From positions 1 through 23,279 of the IMG/VR virus record IMGVR_UViG_3300029816_000015: a stretch of 23,279 nucleotides of DNA; one strand, 5' to 3'. Of the stretch, positions 2,384 to 21,661 are shown piece by piece. This DNA comes from a virus (taxonomy: Duplodnaviria > Heunggongvirae > Uroviricota > Caudoviricetes). The notes below the pieces were generated by a model. The model had not been told where the DNA came from. It was given only the letters and a program-made list of their open reading frames with translations, and did no database searches. The translations under genes and the position numbers were made by a program. Each line of letters opens with the position of its first letter. The stretch's first letter is position 1.

Positions 2384-2384
<1 letters not shown>

Positions 2385-2623
2385 TACATTTTTCCTGCTC
2401 TTCTAAGTTCGTTGTAAGCAATTTCCTCTTTATACGACCTCTGAATCTCAAGAAATTGTCTCAATGATAATAAATCAGAGAATGTCATAGCAAAGAGTTG
2501 GTCAAGTGTTTCTTTACACCCTTCCATACCATAAATAGCAAGCACAAATTTCATCTCGTCTGCTTCTTCATAGGTTGCCTCTACAGCAGCATCAGTCAGT
2601 GGTGTCTGTAGAGTATTGCCCAT
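2384..2623 (-). CDS. Tail assembly chaperone, T-like extension ORF (probably expressed as G-T fusion by -1 frameshift)
   Basis: 79 aa ORF in the -1 frame relative to the upstream 132 aa ORF; its frame is open at least 17 codons upstream of its own ATG across the end of the upstream ORF (KLRKFFRSKHFQKPNFSVN-MGNTLQ...). Confidence 0.6.
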
Positions 2624-2625
2624 GT

Positions 2626-3024
2626 TTACTGAGAAGTTAGGCTTTTGAAAATGCTTGCTTCGAAAAAACTTCCGAAGTTTGCCTCCAGCGCAAATGCTAA
2701 GTAATCAATAAACTCGCCGTAGTTTGCTTGGAAGTACGTATCAATATTAAGTGGGAAGTCATCAACAGTTGCCCCTTGAAATAACAAGGTAGCCATTTCT
2801 TCAAGGTTAATTTCTTCAATTCTGTCAAAACAAGCTTCAACAAGTTCTTTAAATGGAACCATCGGTGCTTCTTTCTTATCTTTATCAGTCAGACTTGATA
2901 GCATCTGTGCAAATGTTGGAACAACAATTTTACCCAACTTCATAGACATCTTAATACCATCTCTTGCCCCAAGCAGAACGATATTTACTTTCTTACCATT
3001 AATTACTCTAGATTCTGTTTTCAT
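2626..3024 (-). CDS. Tail assembly chaperone, G-like
   Basis: 132 aa acidic ORF between tail tube and tape measure genes; contains slippery heptamer near its 3' end. Confidence 0.65.
   Translation of the reverse strand: MKTESRVINGKKVNIVLLGARDGIKMSMKLGKIVVPTFAQMLSSLTDKDKKEAPMVPFKELVEACFDRIEEINLEEMATLLFQGATVDDFPLNIDTYFQANYGEFIDYLAFALEANFGSFFEASIFKSLTSQ
2662..2668 (-). promoter_or_regulatory. Candidate -1 programmed ribosomal frameshift site (slippery heptamer U UUU UUC)
   Basis: Minus-sense ...GGA AGU UUU UUC GAA...; a -1 slip on UUUUUUC enters the frame of the 79 aa ORF. X XXY YYZ heptamer at the position expected for G/GT chaperones. Confidence 0.55.
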
Positions 3025-6815: not shown

Positions 6816-6836
6816 TCATAACCCTCCTTAAGAATA

Positions 6837-7940
6837 TTAGTCTTTGGCGTCAGCACGAACATCTACCAGCAACTGAGGACGAGTACAGTATGGCAGCATG
6901 TAAGAGTGAGCTTCAAAGTCAATACCTTCGTCACGGTCTTTTTCGTATTCGAATACGTACAGTTCCTGACCAAGTGTGTTTGCATAACCCATCTTAGGAC
7001 ATGGACCATATGCAACTTCGAAGATGTTGTTAGCTTCACCAAGCATAGATACGTTAGGGAAAGCATGACCAACACCAACAGTTGCTGCTGCACCATCAAT
7101 GCTCACCAGAGTGTGAACCTTACCACGCTTGTCTTTGAACTTACCGTTGTACTGGACAAACTTAACACCACCGTAGTAGAAAGTGTTCATATGAGCCTGA
7201 ACGCCGTCAGTACCACCAGTTCTCAGAGAACCAGTAATCTGTTGCCAAGCCAGTGGGGTCTGCTGTGCAAGATAAGCGTCACGAATCTTAGGATGCTTAA
7301 CCAGCTTGCTGAAGAATACACGGTCAACAACTACGTGAATTTCTTCACCGTTGATTACAGTGCCAGTCTTAGCTTCGTCTTCCATGTGCATACGCAGTTC
7401 TTCAATAGAAGCGTCGATGTCAGCATTAGGGTTGTCAAGGTCGAAGTAAACAGTCTTCTTCTCAACGTCGAACTGCTTGTACAGGTCAGCGTACAGCGTA
7501 CCACGAGCATCAACAACTTTACCCTTCAGAGCTTGCATAAACAGGAACTCACGAGTAATATCGAACTTGGTACGAATCTTCATCAGCTTCTTAGCACGTA
7601 CTACAGCTTCAGTAGTCAGTTCGTTTGCAGTGCCTGGCTGACGTACACCCTGAATTTCATCAGGAGTGATGCTTTCAACTTCTTTGAAGTACATCATTGG
7701 GAAGCTGATTTGACGGACACGCTCAGGTGCGCTAGTCTCTGCTTTACGGCTATCACGGTCTACCGCATCAAGCAAGCTAACATCCCAATCAGTCAAGTCC
7801 ATAAGGAAAGTAGTTTGGGTGATTGGTGCTGAACGGAATAGACCTAAGTTGGAAATATACCCATAAGTATTTGGGATAGACTGGACTTCACCAGTCAGGT
7901 CAGCAAGGAAAAATCTGCTTTTTTCAGAATTAGTCAACAT
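6837..7940 (-). CDS. Major capsid protein
   Basis: 367 aa ORF following decoration and protease/scaffold genes (lambda-like C-D-E order); RBS GGAGAA 9 nt upstream of ATG; long antisense ORF 6906..7832 is spurious. Confidence 0.7.
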   Translation of the reverse strand: MLTNSEKSRFFLADLTGEVQSIPNTYGYISNLGLFRSAPITQTTFLMDLTDWDVSLLDAVDRDSRKAETSAPERVRQISFPMMYFKEVESITPDEIQGVRQPGTANELTTEAVVRAKKLMKIRTKFDITREFLFMQALKGKVVDARGTLYADLYKQFDVEKKTVYFDLDNPNADIDASIEELRMHMEDEAKTGTVINGEEIHVVVDRVFFSKLVKHPKIRDAYLAQQTPLAWQQITGSLRTGGTDGVQAHMNTFYYGGVKFVQYNGKFKDKRGKVHTLVSIDGAAATVGVGHAFPNVSMLGEANNIFEVAYGPCPKMGYANTLGQELYVFEYEKDRDEGIDFEAHSYMLPYCTRPQLLVDVRADAKD

Positions 7941-14044: not shown

Positions 14045-14084
14045 ATTATTATTATTTTAATTGAGAGAGAGTAAAATAACTTGG

Positions 14085-14157
14085 AGAATCCGAAGGGACT
14101 CGAACCCTTATAGACCTGTTTTGCAGACAGGCACATAGCCATTTCTGTCACGGATTC
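14085..14157 (-). tRNA. tRNA-Cys (anticodon GCA)
   Basis: Hand-folded: acceptor CGGATTC pairing, T arm AAGGG-TTCGAGT-CCCTT, anticodon loop CTGCAAA, encoded CCA at 14082-14084, U73. Confidence 0.7.
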
Positions 14158-14164
14158 AAATTGG

Positions 14165-14254
14165 AGGAAGATACCAGACTTGAACTGGTACACCGATTTC
14201 TCAGCTACTGGCAGTTTAGCAAACTGCTCCCTTACCTTTTAGGGTTAATCTTCC
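14165..14254 (-). tRNA. tRNA-Ser (anticodon GCT), long variable arm
   Basis: 90 nt; acceptor GGAAGAT/ATCTTCC, T arm ACCAG-TTCAAGT-CTGGT, anticodon stem GCAGT/ACTGC with loop TTGCTAA, long variable arm; CCA encoded. Confidence 0.7.
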
Positions 14255-14255
14255 A

Positions 14256-14990
14256 TTATTTCTGTAATGCGTTCTTCATTTCTGGTGTTGCAATAGTATC
14301 AATTACACCAGTTTTACAAGCATCATCAAACCAGTCTGGTAAGATACCTGCTAAGAACCCATTGATATTCGTTTTAAGGTACTCTGCAATAAGGGCAGCT
14401 TCTTCTTCAATCATCTGCACAACTTCATCTGCATAAGCTGTAATCTTCGAGATACCTTCATTAATCTTACTAACAGCTTGGTTAGCTAAATCAGAAACAG
14501 TATCAAGACCTTTATCAATAGCATCTTGTAAGTCACTTAATACATCATTAACACCGTCTAGTGCACTGTTAATTGTGTCAATAGCTTTTTGACCATACTC
14601 TGTAGCAACACCCATAATACCACTAAATGGTGTACAACCAACTTGCTCTCCTGCTGCACCCATAACATTGGAGTAGCCTTTTGCTACCTGCATACGTGAG
14701 GAAAACTCATCAATAGACTTTTGACCATAATCTGTCAATGTCTTAGTGGTTGATGTAGTGCTTGTCAGACTCGTTGTAAAGCTATTAAGCAGAGCTGTTG
14801 TAAGTCCAGCAGCAATGAGCTTATCCTTCATTGTAGGGTCTGTTACAGAGCTAATAGAGCTTACAAGTGATGTAGAGGCAGCCACGGTTCCACCTAGAAC
14901 TGCTGCACCAGTAATAAGGGGATTAGAAAACCCTCTACCGGTTTTTAAGAGATTAAAAATCTCCTTACCTTGTTCTGTCATCTCTTTCAT
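14256..14990 (-). CDS. Hypothetical protein embedded in the tRNA array
   Basis: 245 aa from ATG 14988-14990 with RBS AAGGTG 5 nt upstream; the ORF-track 5' extension to 15053 overlaps tRNA-Phe and is rejected. Ala/Thr/Ser-rich, helical C-terminal half. Confidence 0.55.
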   Translation of the reverse strand: MKEMTEQGKEIFNLLKTGRGFSNPLITGAAVLGGTVAASTSLVSSISSVTDPTMKDKLIAAGLTTALLNSFTTSLTSTTSTTKTLTDYGQKSIDEFSSRMQVAKGYSNVMGAAGEQVGCTPFSGIMGVATEYGQKAIDTINSALDGVNDVLSDLQDAIDKGLDTVSDLANQAVSKINEGISKITAYADEVVQMIEEEAALIAEYLKTNINGFLAGILPDWFDDACKTGVIDTIATPEMKNALQK

Positions 14991-15008
14991 TAAGCACCTT
15001 TGAAATTG

Positions 15009-15083
15009 GTAGTCCAGTGGGATTTGAACCCTCTTCTCATGTTTTTCAGACACGCGCTTTAACCATATAAGCTACTTGGACTA
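15009..15083 (-). tRNA. tRNA-Phe (anticodon GAA)
   Basis: Acceptor TAGTCCA/TGGACTA; T loop TTCAAAT; anticodon stem-loop CGTGT-CTGAAAA-ACATG; D stem weak. Confidence 0.55.
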
Positions 15084-15091
15084 TAAATTGG

Positions 15092-15164
15092 GGTGACCTA
15101 CGGGATTTGAACCCGTATAGACCATGTTCACAGCATGGGTCATTACCTTTTATGATAAGGCCAC
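15092..15164 (-). tRNA. tRNA-His (anticodon GTG)
   Basis: Acceptor GTGGCCT/AGGTCAC, D stem TCAT/ATGA, anticodon stem CCATG/CATGG with loop CTGTGAA, T arm ACGGG-TTCAAAT-CCCGT, CCA encoded. Confidence 0.7.
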
Positions 15165-15198
15165 ATTTAAGGACTCTCGTAAGAACCCTTAGAAGTGG

Positions 15199-15271
15199 CA
15201 GCGGCATAAGGATTTGAACCTTAATAAGACAGCTTCAGAGACTGTTGCATTGCCAGTTATGCTATACCGCT
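15199..15271 (-). tRNA. tRNA-Gln (anticodon CTG)
   Basis: Acceptor AGCGGTA/TGCCGCT, D stem GCAT/ATGC, anticodon loop CTCTGAA, T arm TAAGG-TTCAAAT-CCTTA, CCA encoded. Confidence 0.65.
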
Positions 15272-15279
15272 AAATTTGG

Positions 15280-15355
15280 TACTCCATATCGGATTCGAAC
15301 CGATACATAACACAGATTTTAAGTCTGGCCTCTCTGCCAATTGGAGTAATGGAGC
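15280..15355 (-). tRNA. tRNA with Leu anticodon TAA but short variable arm (76 nt)
   Basis: Acceptor GCTCCAT/ATGGAGT, U8, D stem CTC/GAG, anticodon stem CAGA/TCTG with loop CTTAAAA, 7-8 nt variable loop, T arm ATCGG-TTCGAAT-CCGAT, A73, CCA encoded. Confidence 0.5.
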
Positions 15356-15360
15356 ATTGG

Positions 15361-15433
15361 CGGGGGATGTTGGAATTGAACCAACTTCTTCGATTTCAAA
15401 GACCGAGGTTTTAACCTTGTAAACTAATCCCCT
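15361..15433 (-). tRNA. tRNA-Gln (anticodon TTG)
   Basis: Acceptor with A1-C72 mismatch, T arm GTTGG-TTCAATT-CCAAC, anticodon stem TCGGT/ATCGA with loop CTTTGAA, CCA encoded. Confidence 0.6.
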
Positions 15434-15441
15434 TTAAATCT

Positions 15442-15999
15442 TTACTTTCTTAGTGGATGAATAAAGAATGCCAACATAACTCTTTCCCTTGAGAATGCTC
15501 TTTCTTCTGGGACAACACTTTTAAGTTTCCACCCAACATAAATTCTCCAGTAGAATTGCTTACCAAAGACTTTAATTGACGGGATAAAAGCGAATAATCC
15601 CCAAGCATTACTGTTCCACATTAGGAGATAACCTGTCTGATTATCTTCAGGGTTAGAACTTACATTGATATTACCTTTCCACTTAGTAACATCTTTTACA
15701 TCTCTTCCTAACACATGGTAAGAGAAGTTATAAGCTTTGTTTCTCCAGAGCCAACCAACTCTCTGCATATAGACACCAAGCTTACCAATCTTTCTAATCT
15801 TAGCCCATCGTTCGACATGACCTTTATCACCATCAATTGGGTTGTCATATGTCTCCATCCATCTGAATCCAAAAGGGAGATGTCCTTTCTTCTCACTGTA
15901 GAATGGAACTACGAAAGGTGCTAAGATAACTGCTAAGATTGCTGCAAATGGCTCTAACAAAGCTAAGAAAATCCATGAAGCATACTTCAAATATCTCAT
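15442..15999 (-). CDS. Hypothetical membrane protein embedded in tRNA array
   Basis: 185 aa ORF with RBS AAGAGG upstream of ATG; N-terminal hydrophobic helix (WIFLALLEPFAAILAVILAPFVVPF), Trp/Lys-rich remainder; flanked tightly by tRNA genes. Confidence 0.55.
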   Translation of the reverse strand: MRYLKYASWIFLALLEPFAAILAVILAPFVVPFYSEKKGHLPFGFRWMETYDNPIDGDKGHVERWAKIRKIGKLGVYMQRVGWLWRNKAYNFSYHVLGRDVKDVTKWKGNINVSSNPEDNQTGYLLMWNSNAWGLFAFIPSIKVFGKQFYWRIYVGWKLKSVVPEERAFSRERVMLAFFIHPLRK

Positions 16000-16021
16000 C
16001 TAAATAGCCTCTTTAAATTGG

Positions 16022-16094
16022 CGCAGGATAAGGGATTCGAACCCCTATTAACAGCTTCGTAGACTGTTGCTCTATCCATTTGAACTAATCCTGC
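16022..16094 (-). tRNA. tRNA-Arg (anticodon ACG)
   Basis: Acceptor GCAGGAT/ATCCTGC, T arm AGGGG-TTCGAAT-CCCTT, anticodon stem ACAGT/GCTGT with loop CTACGAA, CCA encoded. Confidence 0.65.
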
Positions 16095-16102
16095 AAAACT
16101 GG

Positions 16103-16177
16103 TGTTCCAAGACGGATTCGAACCGTCACTAATACAAGGTTTGAGCTTGCATCCTCTGCCAATTGGGATACTGGAAC
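16103..16177 (-). tRNA. tRNA with Leu anticodon CAA but short variable arm (75 nt)
   Basis: Acceptor GTTCCAG/TTGGAAC, U8, D stem TCC/GGA, anticodon stem GCAAG/CTTGT with loop CTCAAAC, 6-nt variable loop, T arm GACGG-TTCGAAT-CCGTC, A73, CCA encoded; length fixed by adjacent tRNA-Val. Confidence 0.55.
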
Positions 16178-16181
16178 ATGG

Positions 16182-16254
16182 TACTCACTAAAGGACTTGA
16201 ACCTTTTTTCTTCATCTTGTAAGGGTGATGTTTTACCATATAAACTAAGCGAGT
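16182..16254 (-). tRNA. tRNA-Val (anticodon TAC)
   Basis: Acceptor ACTCGCT/AGTGAGT, T arm AAAGG-TTCAAGT-CCTTT, anticodon loop CTTACAA, CCA encoded. Confidence 0.65.
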
Positions 16255-16353
16255 ATGAAAGAGGTCTGAAGTTGTGCCGCTAACTCAACTCCGTGGAATT
16301 TGTTATGGTCTTCAGTTGACTCAAAGCGGTCTTTCACTTGACCTCTAAATTGG

Positions 16354-16425
16354 TGCTCCCACAAGGATTCGAACCCTGATAAGTTGCTTACAAGGCAACC
16401 GTAATAGCCAATTATACGATAGGAG
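16354..16425 (-). tRNA. tRNA-Thr (anticodon TGT)
   Basis: Acceptor GCTCCTA/TGGGAGC, T arm CAGGG-TTCGAAT-CCTTG, perfect anticodon stem GTTGC/GCAAC with loop CTTGTAA, CCA encoded. Confidence 0.65.
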
Positions 16426-16436
16426 CATTAATTTGG

Positions 16437-16508
16437 AGCATCCAGAGGGAATCGAACCCTCAACCTCAGTTTGGAAGACTGTAATTTTCCCGTTTAAACT
16501 ATGGATGC
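16437..16508 (-). tRNA. tRNA-Gly (anticodon TCC)
   Basis: Acceptor GCATCCA/TGGATGC perfect, T arm GAGGG-TTCGATT-CCCTC, anticodon loop CTTCCAA, CCA encoded. Confidence 0.7.
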
Positions 16509-16517
16509 ACTAATTGG

Positions 16518-16590
16518 TGGAGTCACTGAGAATTGAACTCAGTTCCCAAGTTTGCAAAACTCGAATTTTAACCATATAAACTATGACCCC
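16518..16590 (-). tRNA. tRNA-Ala (anticodon TGC)
   Basis: Acceptor GGGGTCA/TGACTCC with G3-U70, T arm CTGAG-TTCAATT-CTCAG, anticodon loop TTTGCAA, CCA encoded. Confidence 0.7.
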
Positions 16591-16599
16591 ATTGCTTGG

Positions 16600-16672
16600 T
16601 ACAGGTGGAGGGAATTGAACCCATCGTCTTACTGATTAAGAGTCAGCCGCATAACCATTTTGCTACACCTGC
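16600..16672 (-). tRNA. tRNA-Lys (anticodon CTT)
   Basis: Acceptor GCAGGTG/CACCTGT, D stem GCA/TGC, anticodon stem CTGA/TCAG with loop CTCTTAA, T loop TTCAATT with only 3 clean T-stem pairs, CCA encoded. Confidence 0.55.
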
Positions 16673-16682
16673 ATTAATTTGG

Positions 16683-16757
16683 TAGGAGACAAGGGATTCG
16701 AACCCTCAAACACCAACTTCTAAGGATGGTAGGTTTACCAATTACCGTCAATCTCCC
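16683..16757 (-). tRNA. tRNA with Leu anticodon TAG but short variable arm (75 nt)
   Basis: Acceptor GGGAGAT/GTCTCCT (two G-U pairs), anticodon stem CCATC/GTTGG with loop CTTAGAA, T arm GAGGG-TTCGAAT-CCCTT, A73, CCA encoded; two extra nt between acceptor and D stem. Confidence 0.45.
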
Positions 16758-17011
16758 ATTAAATCTTTTTAGAGAACTTCTAAGAACCTAAGCAACAAGG
16801 TTCCACAACAAGCTGTAATAACCTTAGAAGCCCTCTAAAAAGACCTAATTTGGTCTTTGCATAGTCTTGTTTAATCCGGTGACTAGAACCTTTGGAGAGC
16901 TTGATATATCTCTTCTCCGTGACACCTACTAGGTGCTTTATCAGTGTACGACAATACACGAGGGATAAACCGAAAATGCGAGCAAGCATGGACGGTGTAA
17001 ATCTTATTAGG

Positions 17012-17099
17012 CGGTAAGTAAAGGAGTCGAACCCTCACCGTATCTCTACAGTGGCAACAGTTTTCAAGACTGTTTGGCTGCCATTAGCCGCTACCTACC
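17012..17099 (-). tRNA. tRNA-Ser (anticodon TGA), long variable arm
   Basis: 88 nt; acceptor GGTAGGT/ACTTACC, 3-bp D stem, perfect anticodon stem ACAGT/ACTGT with loop CTTGAAA, long variable arm, T loop TTCGACT. Confidence 0.6.
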
Positions 17100-17115
17100 C
17101 CTAATAAGATTTTGG

Positions 17116-17195
17116 CATGGGACGGAGGAGTTGAACCCCTTTGAAACGGTTTTGGAGGCCGTTGCTCATGCCTTAGAGTCTTAACATCGTCCCAT
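17116..17195 (-). tRNA. tRNA-Trp (anticodon CCA), enlarged D region
   Basis: 80 nt; acceptor ATGGGAC/GTCCCAT perfect, anticodon stem ACGG/CCGT with loop CTCCAAA, T loop TTCAACT, CCA encoded; D region about 7 nt longer than standard. Confidence 0.5.
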
Positions 17196-17340
17196 ACTGT
17201 AATTCGAAGCTTACCGTATTTTCACAACACTGTAAAGCCCCTTCTCAGATTATTTACATGTTCTGGAAAACATGAGATACAGACCACCTCCTTACACGGA
17301 GACCCGATAAGGTCGTCTAAGCAATCTGCTAACTATTTGG

Positions 17341-17414
17341 CACACCCTACAGGATTCGAACCTGTAACTCAATGATTAGAAGTCATTTGCTCTGTCCAGT
17401 TGAACTAAGGGTGC
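17341..17414 (-). tRNA. tRNA-Arg (anticodon TCT)
   Basis: Acceptor GCACCCT/AGGGTGT, T arm ACAGG-TTCGAAT-CCTGT, perfect anticodon stem AATGA/TCATT with loop CTTCTAA, CCA encoded. Confidence 0.7.
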
Positions 17415-17617
17415 ATTAATCTTTAAAAACTCTCTTAGAAAGCCCTTAAAGATGCCCACCTTATTAATCATACCGTGGGCTAGTACGCCAAATTCTTTGA
17501 TGAGGGATTGGAAGACCTCACTGGTGTTTAGCCTATCAAGCTACTGCCAGAAAAACATTGTCGTTTGCATTTATTTTAAATTTGCAAAATAGACGCTACG
17601 CAACGAAAACTAAGGTT

Positions 17618-17646
17618 ACTATAAAGTGGTCACATCTAAATGTCAA
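17618..17646 (-). promoter_or_regulatory. Sigma70-like promoter inside the tRNA array (minus sense TTGACA-N17-TATAGT)
   Basis: -35 TTGACA at 17646..17641 and -10 TATAGT at 17623..17618 with a 17-bp spacer; predicted start near 17610, about 195 nt upstream of tRNA-Arg(TCT). Confidence 0.5.
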
Positions 17647-17664
17647 CAACTTTATTGAAATTGG

Positions 17665-17737
17665 TACTGGTAGGTGGAATCGAACCACCGATGTTCCCTT
17701 ATCAGGGGAGTGTTATAACCTTCTTAACTATACCAGC
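17665..17737 (-). tRNA. tRNA-Ile (anticodon GAT)
   Basis: Acceptor GCTGGTA/TACCAGT, T arm GGTGG-TTCGATT-CCACC, anticodon loop CTGATAA, CCA encoded. Confidence 0.7.
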
Positions 17738-17741
17738 TTGG

Positions 17742-17815
17742 AGGTTCAGATGGGATTCGAACCCACATTCATAGGGCTTATGAGACCCTTGCATTACCTT
17801 ATCTGCGACTGAACC
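17742..17815 (-). tRNA. tRNA with anticodon CAT (Met elongator or Ile2-type)
   Basis: Acceptor GGTTCAG/CTGAACC perfect, D stem GCA/TGC, anticodon stem AGGGT/GCCCT with loop CTCATAA, T arm GTGGG-TTCGAAT-CCCAT, CCA encoded. Confidence 0.65.
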
Positions 17816-17822
17816 ATATTGG

Positions 17823-17895
17823 TAGAAGTGGAGGGATTCGAACCCATCGCCTGTCAGATTAAAAGTCTGCCGCATCACCATTCTGCTACACTTCC
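17823..17895 (-). tRNA. tRNA-Lys (anticodon TTT)
   Basis: Acceptor GGAAGTG/CACTTCT, anticodon stem CAGA/TCTG with loop CTTTTAA, T loop TTCGAAT with GGG/CCC core as in the other Lys tRNA, CCA encoded. Confidence 0.55.
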
Positions 17896-17901
17896 ATTAA
17901 A

Positions 17902-18040
17902 TTATCTTTGTAGATAAGCTACCCAGACTTGCTTAAGGTCTGTAGCGATGTGCCTTGTTGGGTTTAAATCTAGAATTTACCCTTTCACCCTTTGTGGTCG
18001 CATACTCACAGGTAAGCTTAATAACTTATCTACAAAGATA
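17902..18040 (-). repeat. Long hairpin: 17-bp perfect inverted repeat (TTATCTTTGTAGATAAG / CTTATCTACAAAGATAA) enclosing about 105 nt
   Basis: Arms at 17902-17918 and 18024-18040 are exact reverse complements; interior holds smaller hairpins including CCAGAC-N8-GGTCTG (17922-17943); no tRNA fold found. Confidence 0.5.
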
Positions 18041-18044
18041 ATTA

Positions 18045-18176
18045 CCAGACCGTTGTTTATCATCTTAAGTGCTACCATTACACCAACTCGACATCTGCCG
18101 AGTGAAGGAATCGAACCTTCGCCTTTTCTTTACCGGAGAAATAGATTGTTTAAGTTTTGCTGTAAACGGTCTTCTG
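18045..18176 (-). ncRNA. Candidate Y-RNA-like ncRNA (YrlA-type) with permuted tRNA-like module
   Basis: Closing helix from minus-sense CAGAAGACCGUU (5') and AACGGUCUGG (3'); interior in minus sense has T arm GAAGG-UUCGAUU-CCUUC, then hairpin ACUCGGC-AGAU-GUCGAGU, then D-arm-like UGGUGUAAUGGUAGCAC. No anticodon arm. Confidence 0.4.
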
Positions 18177-18188
18177 TAAATTTGTTGA

Positions 18189-18265
18189 GCCAGACCAAGT
18201 TTTAAATTTTCAAAATTAAATTGGCTTTAAATTTTAAGTAACTTGCTGAATTTGGTCTTCTGCTC
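18189..18265 (-). ncRNA. Bulged-helix hairpin element, same closing helix as 18045..18176, AT-rich interior
   Basis: Arms GCCAGACCAAG (18189-18199) and TTGGTCTTCTGC (18252-18263) pair as AGACC/GGUCU plus a 3-nt bulge plus GG/CC; loop about 50 nt without tRNA-like arms. Confidence 0.3.
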
Positions 18266-18277
18266 CTTTAAAGAATA

Positions 18278-18314
18278 CTCGTAAGAACCCTTTAAGGGAG
18301 GGGCTAAATAGCCC
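18278..18314 (-). promoter_or_regulatory. Conserved spacer motif (minus sense CTTAAAGGGTTCTTACGAG) next to small hairpin GGGCTA-AA-TAGCCC
   Basis: Near-identical to the motif at 15174-15195 (minus sense CTTCTAAGGGTTCTTACGAGAG); weaker copies at 16770-16790 and 17428-17450. Function unknown. Confidence 0.3.
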
Positions 18315-18326
18315 TCTCAAAATTGG

Positions 18327-18400
18327 CGGTTACGATGAGACTTGAACTCACATCATCTCCCGTGACAGGGGAGTATTTTATCCAGTTAAACTACATAACC
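18327..18400 (-). tRNA. tRNA-Asp (anticodon GTC)
   Basis: Acceptor GGTTATG/CGTAACC, T arm GTGAG-TTCAAGT-CTCAT, perfect anticodon stem CTCCC/GGGAG with loop CTGTCAC, CCA encoded. Confidence 0.65.
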
Positions 18401-18409
18401 TTTATTTGG

Positions 18410-18494
18410 TGTGCCGTGTAGGAGTCGAACCTACCGAGTCTCAATGACAAGGGATTTACAGTCCCCACCGCTACCATCTACGGGATAACGACAC
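18410..18494 (-). tRNA. tRNA-Tyr (anticodon GTA), long variable arm
   Basis: 85 nt; acceptor GTGTCGT/ACGGCAC, D stem CCG/CGG, anticodon stem GGGGA/TCCCT with loop CTGTAAA, long variable arm, T arm GTAGG-TTCGACT-CCTAC, CCA encoded. Confidence 0.65.
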
Positions 18495-18506
18495 ATTTAA
18501 ATTTGG

Positions 18507-18580
18507 CGGTTAGTCAGGGATTCGAACCCTGTGCCATTCGCTTAACAGGCGACCGCACATACCTTATGTGCTTCCTAACC
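18507..18580 (-). tRNA. tRNA-Asn (anticodon GTT)
   Basis: D stem GCAC/GTGC perfect, anticodon stem GTCGC/GCGAA with loop CTGTTAA, T arm CAGGG-TTCGAAT-CCCTG, CCA encoded. Confidence 0.65.
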
Positions 18581-18590
18581 TTAATATATT

Positions 18591-18655
18591 GCCAGACCGT
18601 GTTTTTTTTTCTTTTATCCGCAAAAAGTAGTTTATTGCTGCATACGGTCTTCTGC
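18591..18655 (-). ncRNA. Bulged-helix hairpin element (third copy)
   Basis: Arms GCCAGACCGT (18591-18600) and ACGGTCTTCTGC (18644-18655); 7-bp helix plus 3-nt bulge plus G-C pairs; 43-nt loop with a poly-T run on plus. Confidence 0.3.
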
Positions 18656-18663
18656 AAAATTGG

Positions 18664-18737
18664 AGGCGGGTGCAGGAGTCGAACCTGCCGATGCCATGCT
18701 AATGAGACATGTGAGACGCCCTTTCTCTATACCCGCA
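18664..18737 (-). tRNA. tRNA with anticodon CAT (second copy; Met, fMet or Ile2-type)
   Basis: Acceptor TGCGGGT/ACCCGCC with 1:72 mismatch, T arm GCAGG-TTCGACT-CCTGC, anticodon stem CATGT/GCATG with loop CTCATTA (U at position 37), CCA encoded. Confidence 0.5.
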
Positions 18738-18748
18738 ATTCTTAATGA

Positions 18749-18821
18749 CCAGACCAAATCTCTTCTTTGTCCGATTTAGCTTCAGATGAATAAGATTAAG
18801 TTTGCTGTAATTGGTCTTCTG
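18749..18821 (-). ncRNA. Bulged-helix hairpin element (fourth copy)
   Basis: Arms CCAGACCAAA (18749-18758) and TTGGTCTTCTG (18811-18821) enclosing an AT-rich 50-nt loop. Confidence 0.3.
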
Positions 18822-18831
18822 TCAAAACTGG

Positions 18832-18906
18832 CGTTCCAGAAGGGATTTTAACCCTCAAATATCCACTTTGAAAGAGTGGTGACTATACCATTTTGTCTAC
18901 TGGAAC
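18832..18906 (-). tRNA. tRNA-Glu (anticodon TTC)
   Basis: Acceptor GTTCCAG/CTGGAAC perfect, D stem GAC/GTC, perfect anticodon stem CCACT/AGTGG with loop CTTTCAA, unusual T loop TTAAAAT, CCA encoded. Confidence 0.6.
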
Positions 18907-18916
18907 ATTAATTTGG

Positions 18917-18990
18917 TCTCTGTTGGAGGACTTGAACCTCCGGCCTTACCGCCCCAAACGGAACACTCTACCAAGCTGAGCTAAACAGAG
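18917..18990 (-). tRNA. tRNA-Pro (anticodon TGG); first gene of the array in transcription order
   Basis: Acceptor CTCTGTT/AACAGAG perfect, T arm GGAGG-TTCAAGT-CCTCC, anticodon loop TTTGGGG, CCA encoded. Confidence 0.65.
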
Positions 18991-19016
18991 ATAAACTTTT
19001 CAAACTCTATGTAACC

Positions 19017-19046
19017 ACTTTAACATTATTTTTTAGTGATTGTCAA
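19017..19046 (-). promoter_or_regulatory. Sigma70-like promoter for the tRNA array (minus sense TTGACA-N18-TAAAGT)
   Basis: -35 TTGACA at 19046..19041, -10 TAAAGT at 19022..19017; predicted start about 10-20 nt upstream of tRNA-Pro. Confidence 0.45.
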
Positions 19047-19108
19047 GAACTTTTTTAAAATATTTTTCAGTATCTTAGAAAAGCTCTCATTTCGTTTCTA
19101 TGTAGAAC

Positions 19109-19137
19109 ATATTAAAGGGTATCAAACACATTGTCAA
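19109..19137 (-). promoter_or_regulatory. Second sigma70-like promoter (minus sense TTGACA-N17-TAATAT) overlapping a hairpin
   Basis: -35 TTGACA at 19137..19132, -10 TAATAT at 19114..19109, 17-bp spacer; the -35 lies in the loop of hairpin GGGTAT...ATACCC (19117-19142). Confidence 0.45.
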
Positions 19138-19147
19138 TACCCTTTTT
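19115..19147. terminator. Hairpin GGGTAT-N14-ATACCC flanked by T/A runs (candidate terminator for the upstream minus-strand operon)
   Basis: 6-bp stem; on plus followed by TTTTT, in minus sense by UUUAAU; sits 10 nt downstream of the stop of the vWA gene. Confidence 0.35.
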
Positions 19148-19155
19148 AAAACTTT

Positions 19156-19521
19156 TTACCAGATATAACGGTCAACCATTACTGCTTTGAGCATTACGCT
19201 GATTGGGTCAAACTTCTCACCACCAAGCAGAGCTTTTAAAGTGGCTGGAGAGAACCCTGATACCATCGCTACACCATTATCCTTAACAGATACTTCGCAA
19301 GTACCATTACGGTTTGCTAAGTACCAGAATACTAGTTGTGGCATTTCGTATCCAGCTTTTTTGTACTTACTCTGAATTGCTTCAAAGTTTGTACGACCAT
19401 TTGCACCATCAACCTGATTAAACTCCATATCAGAGAAGATAATAAGCTTACTTGGCATATCTTTCTGAGTCAAGTTGTTTCTCTTACCTATCTCAAGAAT
19501 ACGGTCAAAGCTGCTTGTAAG
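19156..19521 (-). CDS. C-terminal part of Ro60/Rsr-like (or DUF2828-like) vWA-domain protein, out of frame with N-terminal part
   Basis: Frame open from just after a TAA at 19522-19524; encodes LTSSFDRILEIGKRNNLTQKDMPSKLIIFSDMEFN... (second half of a vWA fold). ORF track entry 19156..19473 begins at an internal TTG. Confidence 0.55.
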   Translation of the reverse strand, partial: LTSSFDRILEIGKRNNLTQKDMPSKLIIFSDMEFNQVDGANGRTNFEAIQSKYKKAGYEMPQLVFWYLANRNGTCEVSVKDNGVAMVSGFSPATLKALLGGEKFDPISVMLKAVMVDRYIW

Positions 19522-20570
19522 TTAGTTGAACCATATTCAACATGACGCATTACCTGACGATGACGGTTTCGTAAATCACCACTCAGTTCAATGAAATGAG
19601 GGTTTGTTGAATAGACCATTAACTCATCTTTAAAGCAACCTGTATTGCGTTCTGCTACATACAAGGCAAGTGATACACCAATATCAAGGGCAGTGATTGA
19701 ACCAAGATTCACCCAAGACATTGAGCTTGAAACATCAGTCATACACAAGATGTTCTCACCTTCTGCCATCCAGTTTGGTAGTGCTTTCCACTGCTCATTA
19801 GCAACATCTGCATTACCATGCTTGATAGACTTAATCACATCGTATGGGTAGACAGCACCAGCATTAATCTTAGCCTCACCTTTTGATAAGGACTCAATGT
19901 AAGCTTTGTAGCGTTCTCCATCTTTGCGGTTAAAGAGCTTTTGGTAACGTGCAGCAGCAAGAGACGGAATCTTACTGTAATCAATCTTACCAAACTCATT
20001 AGCAGAGATTTTTTGCTCAACCGTATCAGACAGTGCAGATAACAGTGTGCGGTATTCTTTCTCGCTTAAGTTTGCAAACTTACAGAAACGTTTTACAAAC
20101 TGTTTGTGTCGTGGTTTTACTCGTGGTAACCACTTGGCTGCTAAACCTGCTGTCTCAGGGTCTAGTAATGCTGCTTCTAAATGCTTAAAGGCATCTGTCT
20201 CAAAACGAGTACCTACGAAGATTTTGAAGTCATCAAAACGACCAAGTTCTGCAATCTTATCCATAATACGAAGAAACTGTGTAGGCTCTAAAACTTTATC
20301 TTCGATTGCTTGAAGTAAAACAGTTCTGAAGGCTTTACGCTCACCCATACCTTCTCGTACATCTCGCATGTGAAGCAAAATACGAACTGCAACATCAACA
20401 TCCTCACGCAAAGCTTTGTAGAACAAGTCTGGTAAGATTTCTACATTGCTACGGCTTGAACCAGCAGCTTTGTAAAAGTCCACAAGAGCAGACATTGATG
20501 AAGTATGGTTTACAGCACCATTTTCAGTTCGACCTGCATGAAGGTGCGCATGTTTAAATAATTCGCTCAT
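19488..20570 (-). CDS. N-terminal part of Ro60/Rsr-like (or DUF2828-like) protein: helical domain plus start of vWA domain
   Basis: 360 aa; RBS AAGAGAG upstream of ATG; helical N-terminal about 280 aa, then DxSxS motif (CMTDVSSSMSW) typical of a vWA MIDAS; ends at TAG 19488-19490 inside the vWA domain. Confidence 0.6.
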   Translation of the reverse strand: MSELFKHAHLHAGRTENGAVNHTSSMSALVDFYKAAGSSRSNVEILPDLFYKALREDVDVAVRILLHMRDVREGMGERKAFRTVLLQAIEDKVLEPTQFLRIMDKIAELGRFDDFKIFVGTRFETDAFKHLEAALLDPETAGLAAKWLPRVKPRHKQFVKRFCKFANLSEKEYRTLLSALSDTVEQKISANEFGKIDYSKIPSLAAARYQKLFNRKDGERYKAYIESLSKGEAKINAGAVYPYDVIKSIKHGNADVANEQWKALPNWMAEGENILCMTDVSSSMSWVNLGSITALDIGVSLALYVAERNTGCFKDELMVYSTNPHFIELSGDLRNRHRQVMRHVEYGSTNLQAALTVFLR

Positions 20571-20651
20571 ATTTTACTCTCTTCTCTCATTTGTTGTTTG
20601 ATGTGACAGACTTTAGAGCAACTTTGTAGAGTCTGTCAACACCTTTTAAAA

Positions 20652-21023
20652 TTATTTTTTGAGAGTCGCTACAGCAGAGAACGTTGGTTTGTTATCTGTC
20701 TGTGGTTGACCACCATTATCAGGAGTCTTCTTAGTGTCTGCTGCAAGTGCTTTCATCTCACCTGCTGAGTGAGTAAAGATAGTTTTACCGACCTCAATCA
20801 TACTCTTGATGGTTACATCGTCTGTGTTTAACCCGAACTCTGCAAGCTTAGCAGCATCCCTTGTAACAATCGCCTCAAACAGCTTTGCAGCAAACTCAGC
20901 AGAATTATCAATGGTCAGTTGAGCTTTTACGAGTGAGCTTTTGTTACGAGAGCCTTTTGGTCTTCCAGATGGGTTTCCAGATTGGCCTTTTTTAAACTGG
21001 CCTTTGTTTGTTCTGTTTTTCAT
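20652..21023 (-). CDS. Small basic protein with N-terminal GNPSGRPKG motif (putative nucleic-acid-binding)
   Basis: 123 aa ORF, RBS AAGAGG 8 nt upstream; N-terminus KGQFKKGQSGNPSGRPKGSRNK; first gene of the minus-strand operon containing the Ro-like gene. Confidence 0.55.
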   Translation of the reverse strand: MKNRTNKGQFKKGQSGNPSGRPKGSRNKSSLVKAQLTIDNSAEFAAKLFEAIVTRDAAKLAEFGLNTDDVTIKSMIEVGKTIFTHSAGEMKALAADTKKTPDNGGQPQTDNKPTFSAVATLKK

Positions 21024-21070
21024 TGGTATGCCTCTTATAAGACCTCTTAAAAGGCTTTTAAGATAAAAGA

Positions 21071-21090
21071 TAGATATCCAGAAAGATATC
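21071..21090. promoter_or_regulatory. Operator-like inverted repeat AGATATC-N6-GATATCT in divergent intergenic region
   Basis: Perfect 7-bp arms separated by CAGAAA, between the divergently transcribed minus (20652..21023) and plus (21273..) operons. Confidence 0.4.
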
Positions 21091-21151
21091 TGTTTAAATA
21101 GCCTTTTTAGAGGAACCTTTTAAGTTATCTTCTAAGTATTTATAAGCCTAC

Positions 21152-21210
21152 ACCTTGTCAAGTACTTTGTCAACAACTTTTTTAACTTGCAATAGTTCTT
21201 GACTTGTTGT
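21152..21210. promoter_or_regulatory. Cluster of TTGTCAA/TTGAC repeats (candidate operator/promoter elements)
   Basis: CTTGTCAAG palindrome (21152-21160), TTTGTCAACAAC (21165-21176) and inverted CTTGACTTGTTG (21198-21209). Confidence 0.35.
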
Positions 21211-21227
21211 ATGGATTACTGTACCAT
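21199..21227 (+). promoter_or_regulatory. Candidate sigma70-like promoter for the plus-strand operon (TTGACT-N17-TACCAT)
   Basis: -35 TTGACT 21199-21204, -10 TACCAT 21222-21227, about 45 nt upstream of the first plus-strand ATG; -10 is weak. Confidence 0.35.
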
Positions 21228-21272
21228 CTTACTTAAAGCTGTAGGTCTGCCTTGTTCTACAAAGGAGACTTA

Positions 21273-21434
21273 ATGAGAAAATCAAACAACCCGAAGAAAG
21301 GTAAAAATACCAATCACTGTAAGGAATCAAAAAGGGTAGAGTTACTCTACTATTCATCCTCTGAAATTGGTCTGTACCTGTTCTTTCAAAATTACAGAAG
21401 ACAAGAGGATTATCTATGTGTAGTTCCCAATTAG
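21273..21434 (+). CDS. Small basic hypothetical protein
   Basis: 53 aa from ATG 21273 with strong RBS AAAGGAGA 5 nt upstream (ORF track starts at an upstream TTG, 21252). Confidence 0.45.
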   Translation: MRKSNNPKKGKNTNHCKESKRVELLYYSSSEIGLYLFFQNYRRQEDYLCVVPN

Positions 21435-21661
21435 AAATCGCAGATATTATAGATTTATATAAGACTGCAAAGAGTCATGGCTATATAACCTCAATTGGAA
21501 AGAATAGTCACTACGATGCTTTGACTGGAATGTATTTCAGGGCAATGGCTCAATCTAGTGAACAACACTTAATGGTTTCTTCCAGTGAGTTTACTTCGTT
21601 TCTCTATTGCAGCAAAATCATAAATCGCAGGAGAACTGAAAATGTTAACAGTAAGTTTTAA
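21416..21661 (+). CDS. Small hypothetical protein
   Basis: 81 aa ORF with RBS AGAGGA upstream; overlaps both neighbours by about 20 nt. Confidence 0.4.
   Translation: MCSSQLEIADIIDLYKTAKSHGYITSIGKNSHYDALTGMYFRAMAQSSEQHLMVSSSEFTSFLYCSKIINRRRTENVNSKF

Follow-up and report, generated by a model that had tools for sequence, protein, structure and literature searches.

A single-base contraction in a run of T probably disrupts the Ro60-like gene of a gut Felixounavirus strain

The viral DNA analysed here (23,279 nt, referred to as the window) carries a gene for a Ro60-like protein as two reading frames on the minus strand. Comparison of the gene with its relatives points to disruption by an ordinary, strain-specific and non-programmed single-base deletion, and we put the probability of this reading at roughly three in four. 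One T would have been lost from a run of four that spans the codons Ala354-Phe355, with replication slippage as the most likely cause. The frame would then change at residue 355, six wrong residues would be added and translation would end at the TAG at 19490-19488. The lesion appears to be non-programmed, confined to one strain and very recent, and the phage may tolerate it because the gene is accessory.

The window was assembled from a human gut metagenome and was assigned by megablast to Felixounavirus, the Felix O1-like myophages of E. coli, Salmonella and Shigella. Genes for the tape measure, tail, capsid, portal and terminase lie in the window. Over its entire 23 kb it is collinear with many genomes, at about 96-97%, and 251 records cover the region of the Ro60-like gene at identities of up to 97%.

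The first of the two frames, ORF1, runs on the minus strand from the ATG at 20570 to the TAG at 19490-19488 (20570..19488, 360 aa). Judged by the model of an orthologue described below, it contains the N-terminal TROVE-like ring (Pfam DUF2828), followed by the first half of the vWA domain, in which the DxSxS motif (D279, S281, S283) and Thr349 lie. The last six residues of ORF1, LTVFLR, are out-of-frame read-through ahead of the premature stop. The remainder of the gene, from Asp356 to Trp471 with the stop codon, lies on the minus strand at 19156..19506, now in the -1 frame relative to ORF1. It comprises the end of helix 351-364, the vWA strands beta4 to beta6 and the MIDAS residue Asp381 (FSDM, within the stretch LIIFSDMEF). 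This second frame is closed on its 5' side by the TAA at 19524-19522 and stays open between 19521 and its own stop at 19156, and the interval in which the shift must fall is bounded by this TAA and by the TAG at 19490-19488. The minus-sense string AACTTACAAGCAGCTTTGACCGTATTCTTGAGA corresponds to 19523..19491; read to 19488, the codons are AAC TTA CAA GCA GCT TTG ACC GTA TTC TTG AGA TAG. Gene callers start the downstream ORF (ORF2) at the ATG at 19458, giving 100 aa, and the ORF listing starts it at the TTG at 19473, giving 105 aa.

Judged by profile searches, ORF1 and ORF2 are pieces of one protein, far beyond chance juxtaposition, because both match consecutive parts of PHROG 850 and of DUF7788. 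In PHROG 850 ('RNA-binding protein', 476 positions) ORF1 covers positions 1-373 (E 5.8e-133) and ORF2 positions 382-476 (E 1.5e-39). In Pfam, ORF1 matches DUF2828 and the first 86 positions of DUF7788, and ORF2 matches DUF7788 positions 85-189. An earlier sequence-only reading of the window had ended the N-terminal ORF at the same TAG, after DxSxS, and had continued the vWA domain in the -1 frame that opens after the TAA. The recomputed coordinates agree with both statements, and the Pfam and PHROG split agrees with the second.

The position of the lesion was defined by alignment. Against five relatives, 95-97% identical across the gene, the sole indel is a contraction from T4 to T3 at 19509-19507 on the minus strand (AAA on the plus strand). 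It occupies a single gapped alignment column, the relatives reading GCAGC-TTTT-GACC and the window GCAGC-TTT-GACC. The start-to-stop span is 1415 nt in the window, compared with an intact CDS of 1416 nt (471 aa) in the five relatives, where the gene carries the annotation 'vWFA protein', 'DUF2828 family protein' or 'RNA-binding protein'. The ancestral codons GCT TTT specify Ala354-Phe355; the second of these residues, Phe355, does not vary in a family alignment of 60 sequences that reaches down to 41% identity. Insertion of one T yields a 471-aa ORF that has no internal stop and is collinear with the relatives. A 1-nt indel inside 19491..19521, perhaps at the TTT run, and a full-length product of about 470 aa had both been proposed from the sequence alone; the alignment puts the missing T exactly at that run and the repaired ORF has 471 aa. 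Besides the deletion, the strain-specific codon changes are three synonymous ones and one conservative replacement (I466V), and beyond these no secondary decay or relaxed selection was seen in the Ro60-like gene. The lesion would be recent, because the gene is otherwise nearly unchanged. The absence of decay would be expected of a very recent mutation and, just as much, of an artefact.

To describe the protein encoded by the intact gene, an AlphaFold2 model of the intact homologue P0002 (97% identical) was built from a 60-sequence alignment; it had a pLDDT of 90.5 and a pTM of 0.90. Foldseek comparison with the PDB matched this model over its full length, with E values between 3e-8 and 2e-6 and TMq between 0.50 and 0.65. 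The top matches were Ro60 (2I91 and 1YVP from Xenopus, and recent cryo-EM entries), TROVE 9KOP, the Ro60 of Thermus phage phiLo, 9L5Y (PMC12135203), and Rsr of D. radiodurans (2NVO). Isolated vWA domains were found only at E 1e-3 or weaker. These matches support, at the level of the predicted fold, a Ro60-like HEAT-repeat ring capped by a vWA domain for the ancestral gene, as opposed to the truncated product, and at that level the name 'Ro-like' that had been given from the sequence is upheld. Sequence identity to the solved Ro60 structures is only 11-16%. Pfam returned only DUF2828 and DUF7788, with no match to TROVE, and searches of NCBIfam and of PDB sequences with phmmer returned nothing.

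The residues D279, S281, S283, T349 and D381 are invariant in the 60-sequence alignment and form a MIDAS-type set, which is complete in the intact relatives. In the window this set is split, with D279, S281, S283 and T349 in ORF1 and D381 in the shifted frame. The role of the MIDAS in Ro60 is unclear (PMC12135203). The shift falls at residue 355 inside helix 351-364, between the invariant T349 and D381, and removes Asp381 together with strands 375-380, 412-417 and 434-438, the last three of the six vWA strands. Because the 360-aa product is without Asp381 and these three strands, it is predicted to be unable to complete a folded vWA cap, and the allele would be null or near-null. The downstream piece of 100-105 aa would be at most weakly expressed and is not expected to fold alone.

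The gene was then followed through its relatives. All 12 distinct Felixounavirus copies that were extracted, IMG/VR contigs included, are intact at 1416 nt and have no internal stop. An intact 471-aa homologue matched 693 phage records by tblastn, with one place covering at least 80% of the query in 691 of them. Each of 60 evenly sampled tblastn rows is one unbroken piece, at 27-99% identity, and the homologues range from Felixounavirus to Vibrio, Campylobacter, Listeria, Enterococcus and mycobacteriophages. Other annotators have named such homologues 'Ro-like RNA binding protein' or 'RNA-binding protein'; a literature search returned nothing on a Ro60-like gene in Felixounavirus phages. In this comparison with orthologues, which the sequence-only reading had called for, the gene is unsplit in every relative examined and a split at the same place is absent.

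The T3 allele itself was sought with a 41-nt probe designed so that any 28-mer seed must cross C-TTT-G; the T4 version served as control. Among 50,697 phage records the T3 probe gave 0 matches and the T4 control 189. In IMG/VR contigs the T3 pattern was found 0 times and the T4 pattern 9 times, and an exact-pattern scan of metagenome and species-genome collections gave no match to the T3 allele. Looking up the exact proteins was the only route by which the allele was found, and those contigs that bear a label come from one project.

A phage that is truly T4, with an intact gene, could give the same picture if the missing T were an error or a minority allele picked by the assemblers. The lesion sits in a homopolymer in an otherwise undecayed gene, which is the look of a sequencing error, and all T3 contigs may come from one project and one read set. 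Even so, we regard an artefact as unlikely, and the evidence comes from the assemblies in which the allele is found. A public protein collection lists 11 contigs for the exact 360-aa product and 11 for the exact 100-aa product, and five stretches of 7-20 kb taken from those contigs were compared (L017-L019, L021 and L022). The contigs include NODE_1106 (SPAdes-style name, cov 57.5), which was compared twice, as L017 and L021; k119_63690 (MEGAHIT-style name, 85.6 kb); GUYA17-1_SAMEA3708731 scaffold_352 (scaffold-style name, 85.6 kb); and ERR1190805.PRJEB12124...k127_34761 (MEGAHIT-style k127 name). Across the gene, all five stretches have exactly the sequence of the window, T3 included. With the window they make six assembled versions that agree on T3, and the contig names suggest at least three assembly pipelines (SPAdes, MEGAHIT, scaffolding).

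At least two of the T3 contigs are labelled PRJEB12124, the stool metagenomes of Gu et al. 2017, for which an Illumina HiSeq 2500 was used to produce 100-bp paired-end reads (PMC5702614). The label 'GUYA17' would appear to denote the same study. The assemblies with T3 probably share one read set or one patient, so their agreement would exclude assembler error and would still be compatible with a systematic read error or a mixed T3/T4 population. Illumina indel errors at runs of 3-4 nt are very low, and consensus errors there are rare at about 57x. For HiSeq 2500 100-bp paired-end data of about this coverage, such an error rate argues against an artefact. So does the absence of the repaired 471-aa protein from a collection of 15 billion proteins, because of which no assembly of the strain can be said to give an intact gene. 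In addition, 24 other reference CDSs of EF202P1 were aligned with the window, and each gave one unbroken full-length match, except for the last two residues of one 77-aa ORF. On the opposite side, assemblies of the strain are at odds over two further 1-nt indels, one near 16908 and one near 18610, and public records of the phage group hold likely homopolymer errors in essential genes, for example in the major capsid protein of CL1.

These comparisons suggest that assembler error is effectively excluded as the source of T3 and that read error is unlikely. A real, very recent deletion is favoured with fair confidence over a consensus error, because six assembled versions agree on T3, at least two of them labelled as Illumina HiSeq data, from one project. 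The sequence-only reading had offered a pseudogene or an assembly error as alternatives; with all six versions at T3, the pseudogene side is favoured and the assembly error disfavoured.

Several other single-base differences were recorded in the strain and its relatives. The window is short of one base at about 16908 (GAGAT-ATATC), which is present in five other assemblies of the strain and in relatives. One assembly (L022) has A8 rather than A9 at about 18610 (18602-18610). Both sites are intergenic and lie in the tRNA cluster. The five stretches differ from the window solely by the single-base indels at about 16908 and, in one, at about 18610; the strain assemblies are thus not indel-perfect, or the population is heterogeneous. 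A second strain-specific contraction, A5 to A4 at 21639-21642 on the plus strand, is common to all assemblies of the strain, and the site is A5 in all eight related loci that contain it (seven other phages). This contraction alters the final two residues of a 77-aa ORF, lengthening it to 81 aa (21416..21661), and cuts the GGAG-to-ATG spacing of the next gene by 1 nt. The record of Escherichia phage CL1 (OK040806), compared with the window at 6828-6943 and 20590-20661 and with EF202P1, shows single-base homopolymer indels. As a result the major capsid protein and a DUF5681 protein have shifted C-termini in CL1; sequencing errors in its record are the probable cause.

Other disruptions of the Ro60-like gene were seen at other positions. 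A Felixounavirus-like contig of Logan SRR29674334, 79% identical, has an in-frame TAG at codon 334 (L020, 1388-2803). Escherichia phage Barry (LR880803) has A5 in place of A6 at about nt 557, leaving 244 + 227 aa (L023, 1501-2915), and Escherichia phage EcSzw_1 (MH791400) has an additional C at about nt 106 (L024, 1356-2772). On sequence these three disruptions would fit a dispensable accessory gene, and the lesions of Barry and EcSzw_1 may be artefacts. It could be proposed that loss of the Ro60-like gene is selected and not merely tolerated, given four independent disruptions at four positions and a coverage of about 57x in the gut. We consider this quite doubtful, and selection for loss is not argued here because essential genes, too, have likely homopolymer errors in the public records of the group (CL1). 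Were it true, the protein could be costly, or sensed by host defence in some hosts, and the strain would be a natural knockout for the role of phage Ro60-like proteins beside tRNA clusters.

Restoration of the full-length protein by programmed -1 frameshifting or by transcriptional slippage at C UUU G is highly improbable. The shift that is needed is indeed -1, a U-rich tetramer U UUG stands at the right place, the phage encodes a tRNA-Leu(CAA) and the window holds an apparently genuine -1 site in its tail chaperone gene. In such a scenario a slip of tRNA-Leu from UUG to UUU would yield Phe355Leu. However, the overlap of the two frames contains no in-phase X XXY YYZ heptamer, the best partial match being T TTG ACC, and upstream of it there is no SD-like stimulator and no AGGAGG-like string. 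The MFE of 19512..19400 (113 nt) is -22.3 versus a shuffle mean of -21.9 (z = -0.12). The two-frame layout occurs in no relative examined, and relatives whose gene needs no shift have the same flanking sequence. Transcriptional slippage takes a much longer run than three T. The sequence-only reading had noted that a canonical slippery heptamer is lacking, had ranked an indel above programmed frameshifting and had named a slippery site with a stimulatory structure as what would count against this ranking. No heptamer was found in phase within the overlap and no structure was found, the split is not conserved, and programmed frameshifting was rejected on these grounds.

Two real genes, whose 360-aa and roughly 100-aa products would reassemble into a working Ro60-like particle, are scarcely credible and were likewise rejected: a partial SD-like AAGAG does stand 7 nt upstream of the TTG at 19473, an ATG is available at 19458 and the phage reaches about 57x coverage in stool despite the split, but the orthologues are single ORFs at 27-99% identity, the break lies inside a helix amid one compact vWA fold, the split is found in no other lineage, and the SD-like string is identical in intact relatives and so did not evolve for a second start.

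The tail chaperone genes of the window were examined as well. A T TTT TTC at 2668-2662 on the minus strand is in phase near the end of a 132-aa ORF (2626..3024), and the -1 frame runs stop-free from it into a 79-aa ORF (2384..2623, also on the minus strand). The 79-aa ORF is followed closely by the tape measure gene, and the arrangement of two frames is shared with EF202P1. In the CL1 record this site is one T longer, and a fused 213-aa 'tape measure chaperone' is annotated. From its sequence and layout, 2668-2662 appears to be a true -1 frameshift site, of the kind known from tail assembly chaperones.

The next genes after the Ro60-like gene, on the same strand, are a cluster of 26 tRNA genes (14082..18990, minus strand), with two sub-threshold tRNA-like remnants in gaps of the array (17119-17193 and 18103-18153). 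YrlA and Y RNAs are usually located within 4 kb of bacterial and phage Ro60 genes (PMC4201824). An Rfam search of 16700-21500, at the gathering threshold and at E<=1, detected no YrlA or Y RNA near the Ro60-like gene, a result that a divergent Y RNA could escape. Only tRNAs and weak tRNA-like remnants were returned from this region.

For annotation, a single Ro60-like gene that is disrupted is the best description of the locus, in preference to a pair of hypothetical proteins or a case of recoding, and its import beyond that is small. If reads confirm T3, the strain would carry a natural null allele of a poorly understood DUF2828/DUF7788 protein in a phage that is abundant in the human gut, and the gene would be dispensable for propagation in that gut.

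The disrupted gene can be compared with three known systems. As in tail assembly chaperones of the G/GT type, two overlapping frames on the same strand stand in a -1 relation. The chaperone site of the window has an in-phase heptamer and a layout shared with EF202P1, whereas the site in the Ro60-like gene has neither. With the Ro60/Rsr family the orthologues of the window gene share a full-length fold match and invariant MIDAS-type residues; they differ in that no Pfam TROVE assignment is made, and in the window no Y RNA was detected nearby and the protein is truncated. The remaining comparison is with frameshift pseudogenes, or null alleles, that arise by homopolymer contraction. The present case, read here from assembled sequences, differs from that class in showing no secondary decay, and its lesion would be very young. 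In common with the class it has a single-base change in run length, intact relatives, repair by one base and a premature stop 6 codons downstream.
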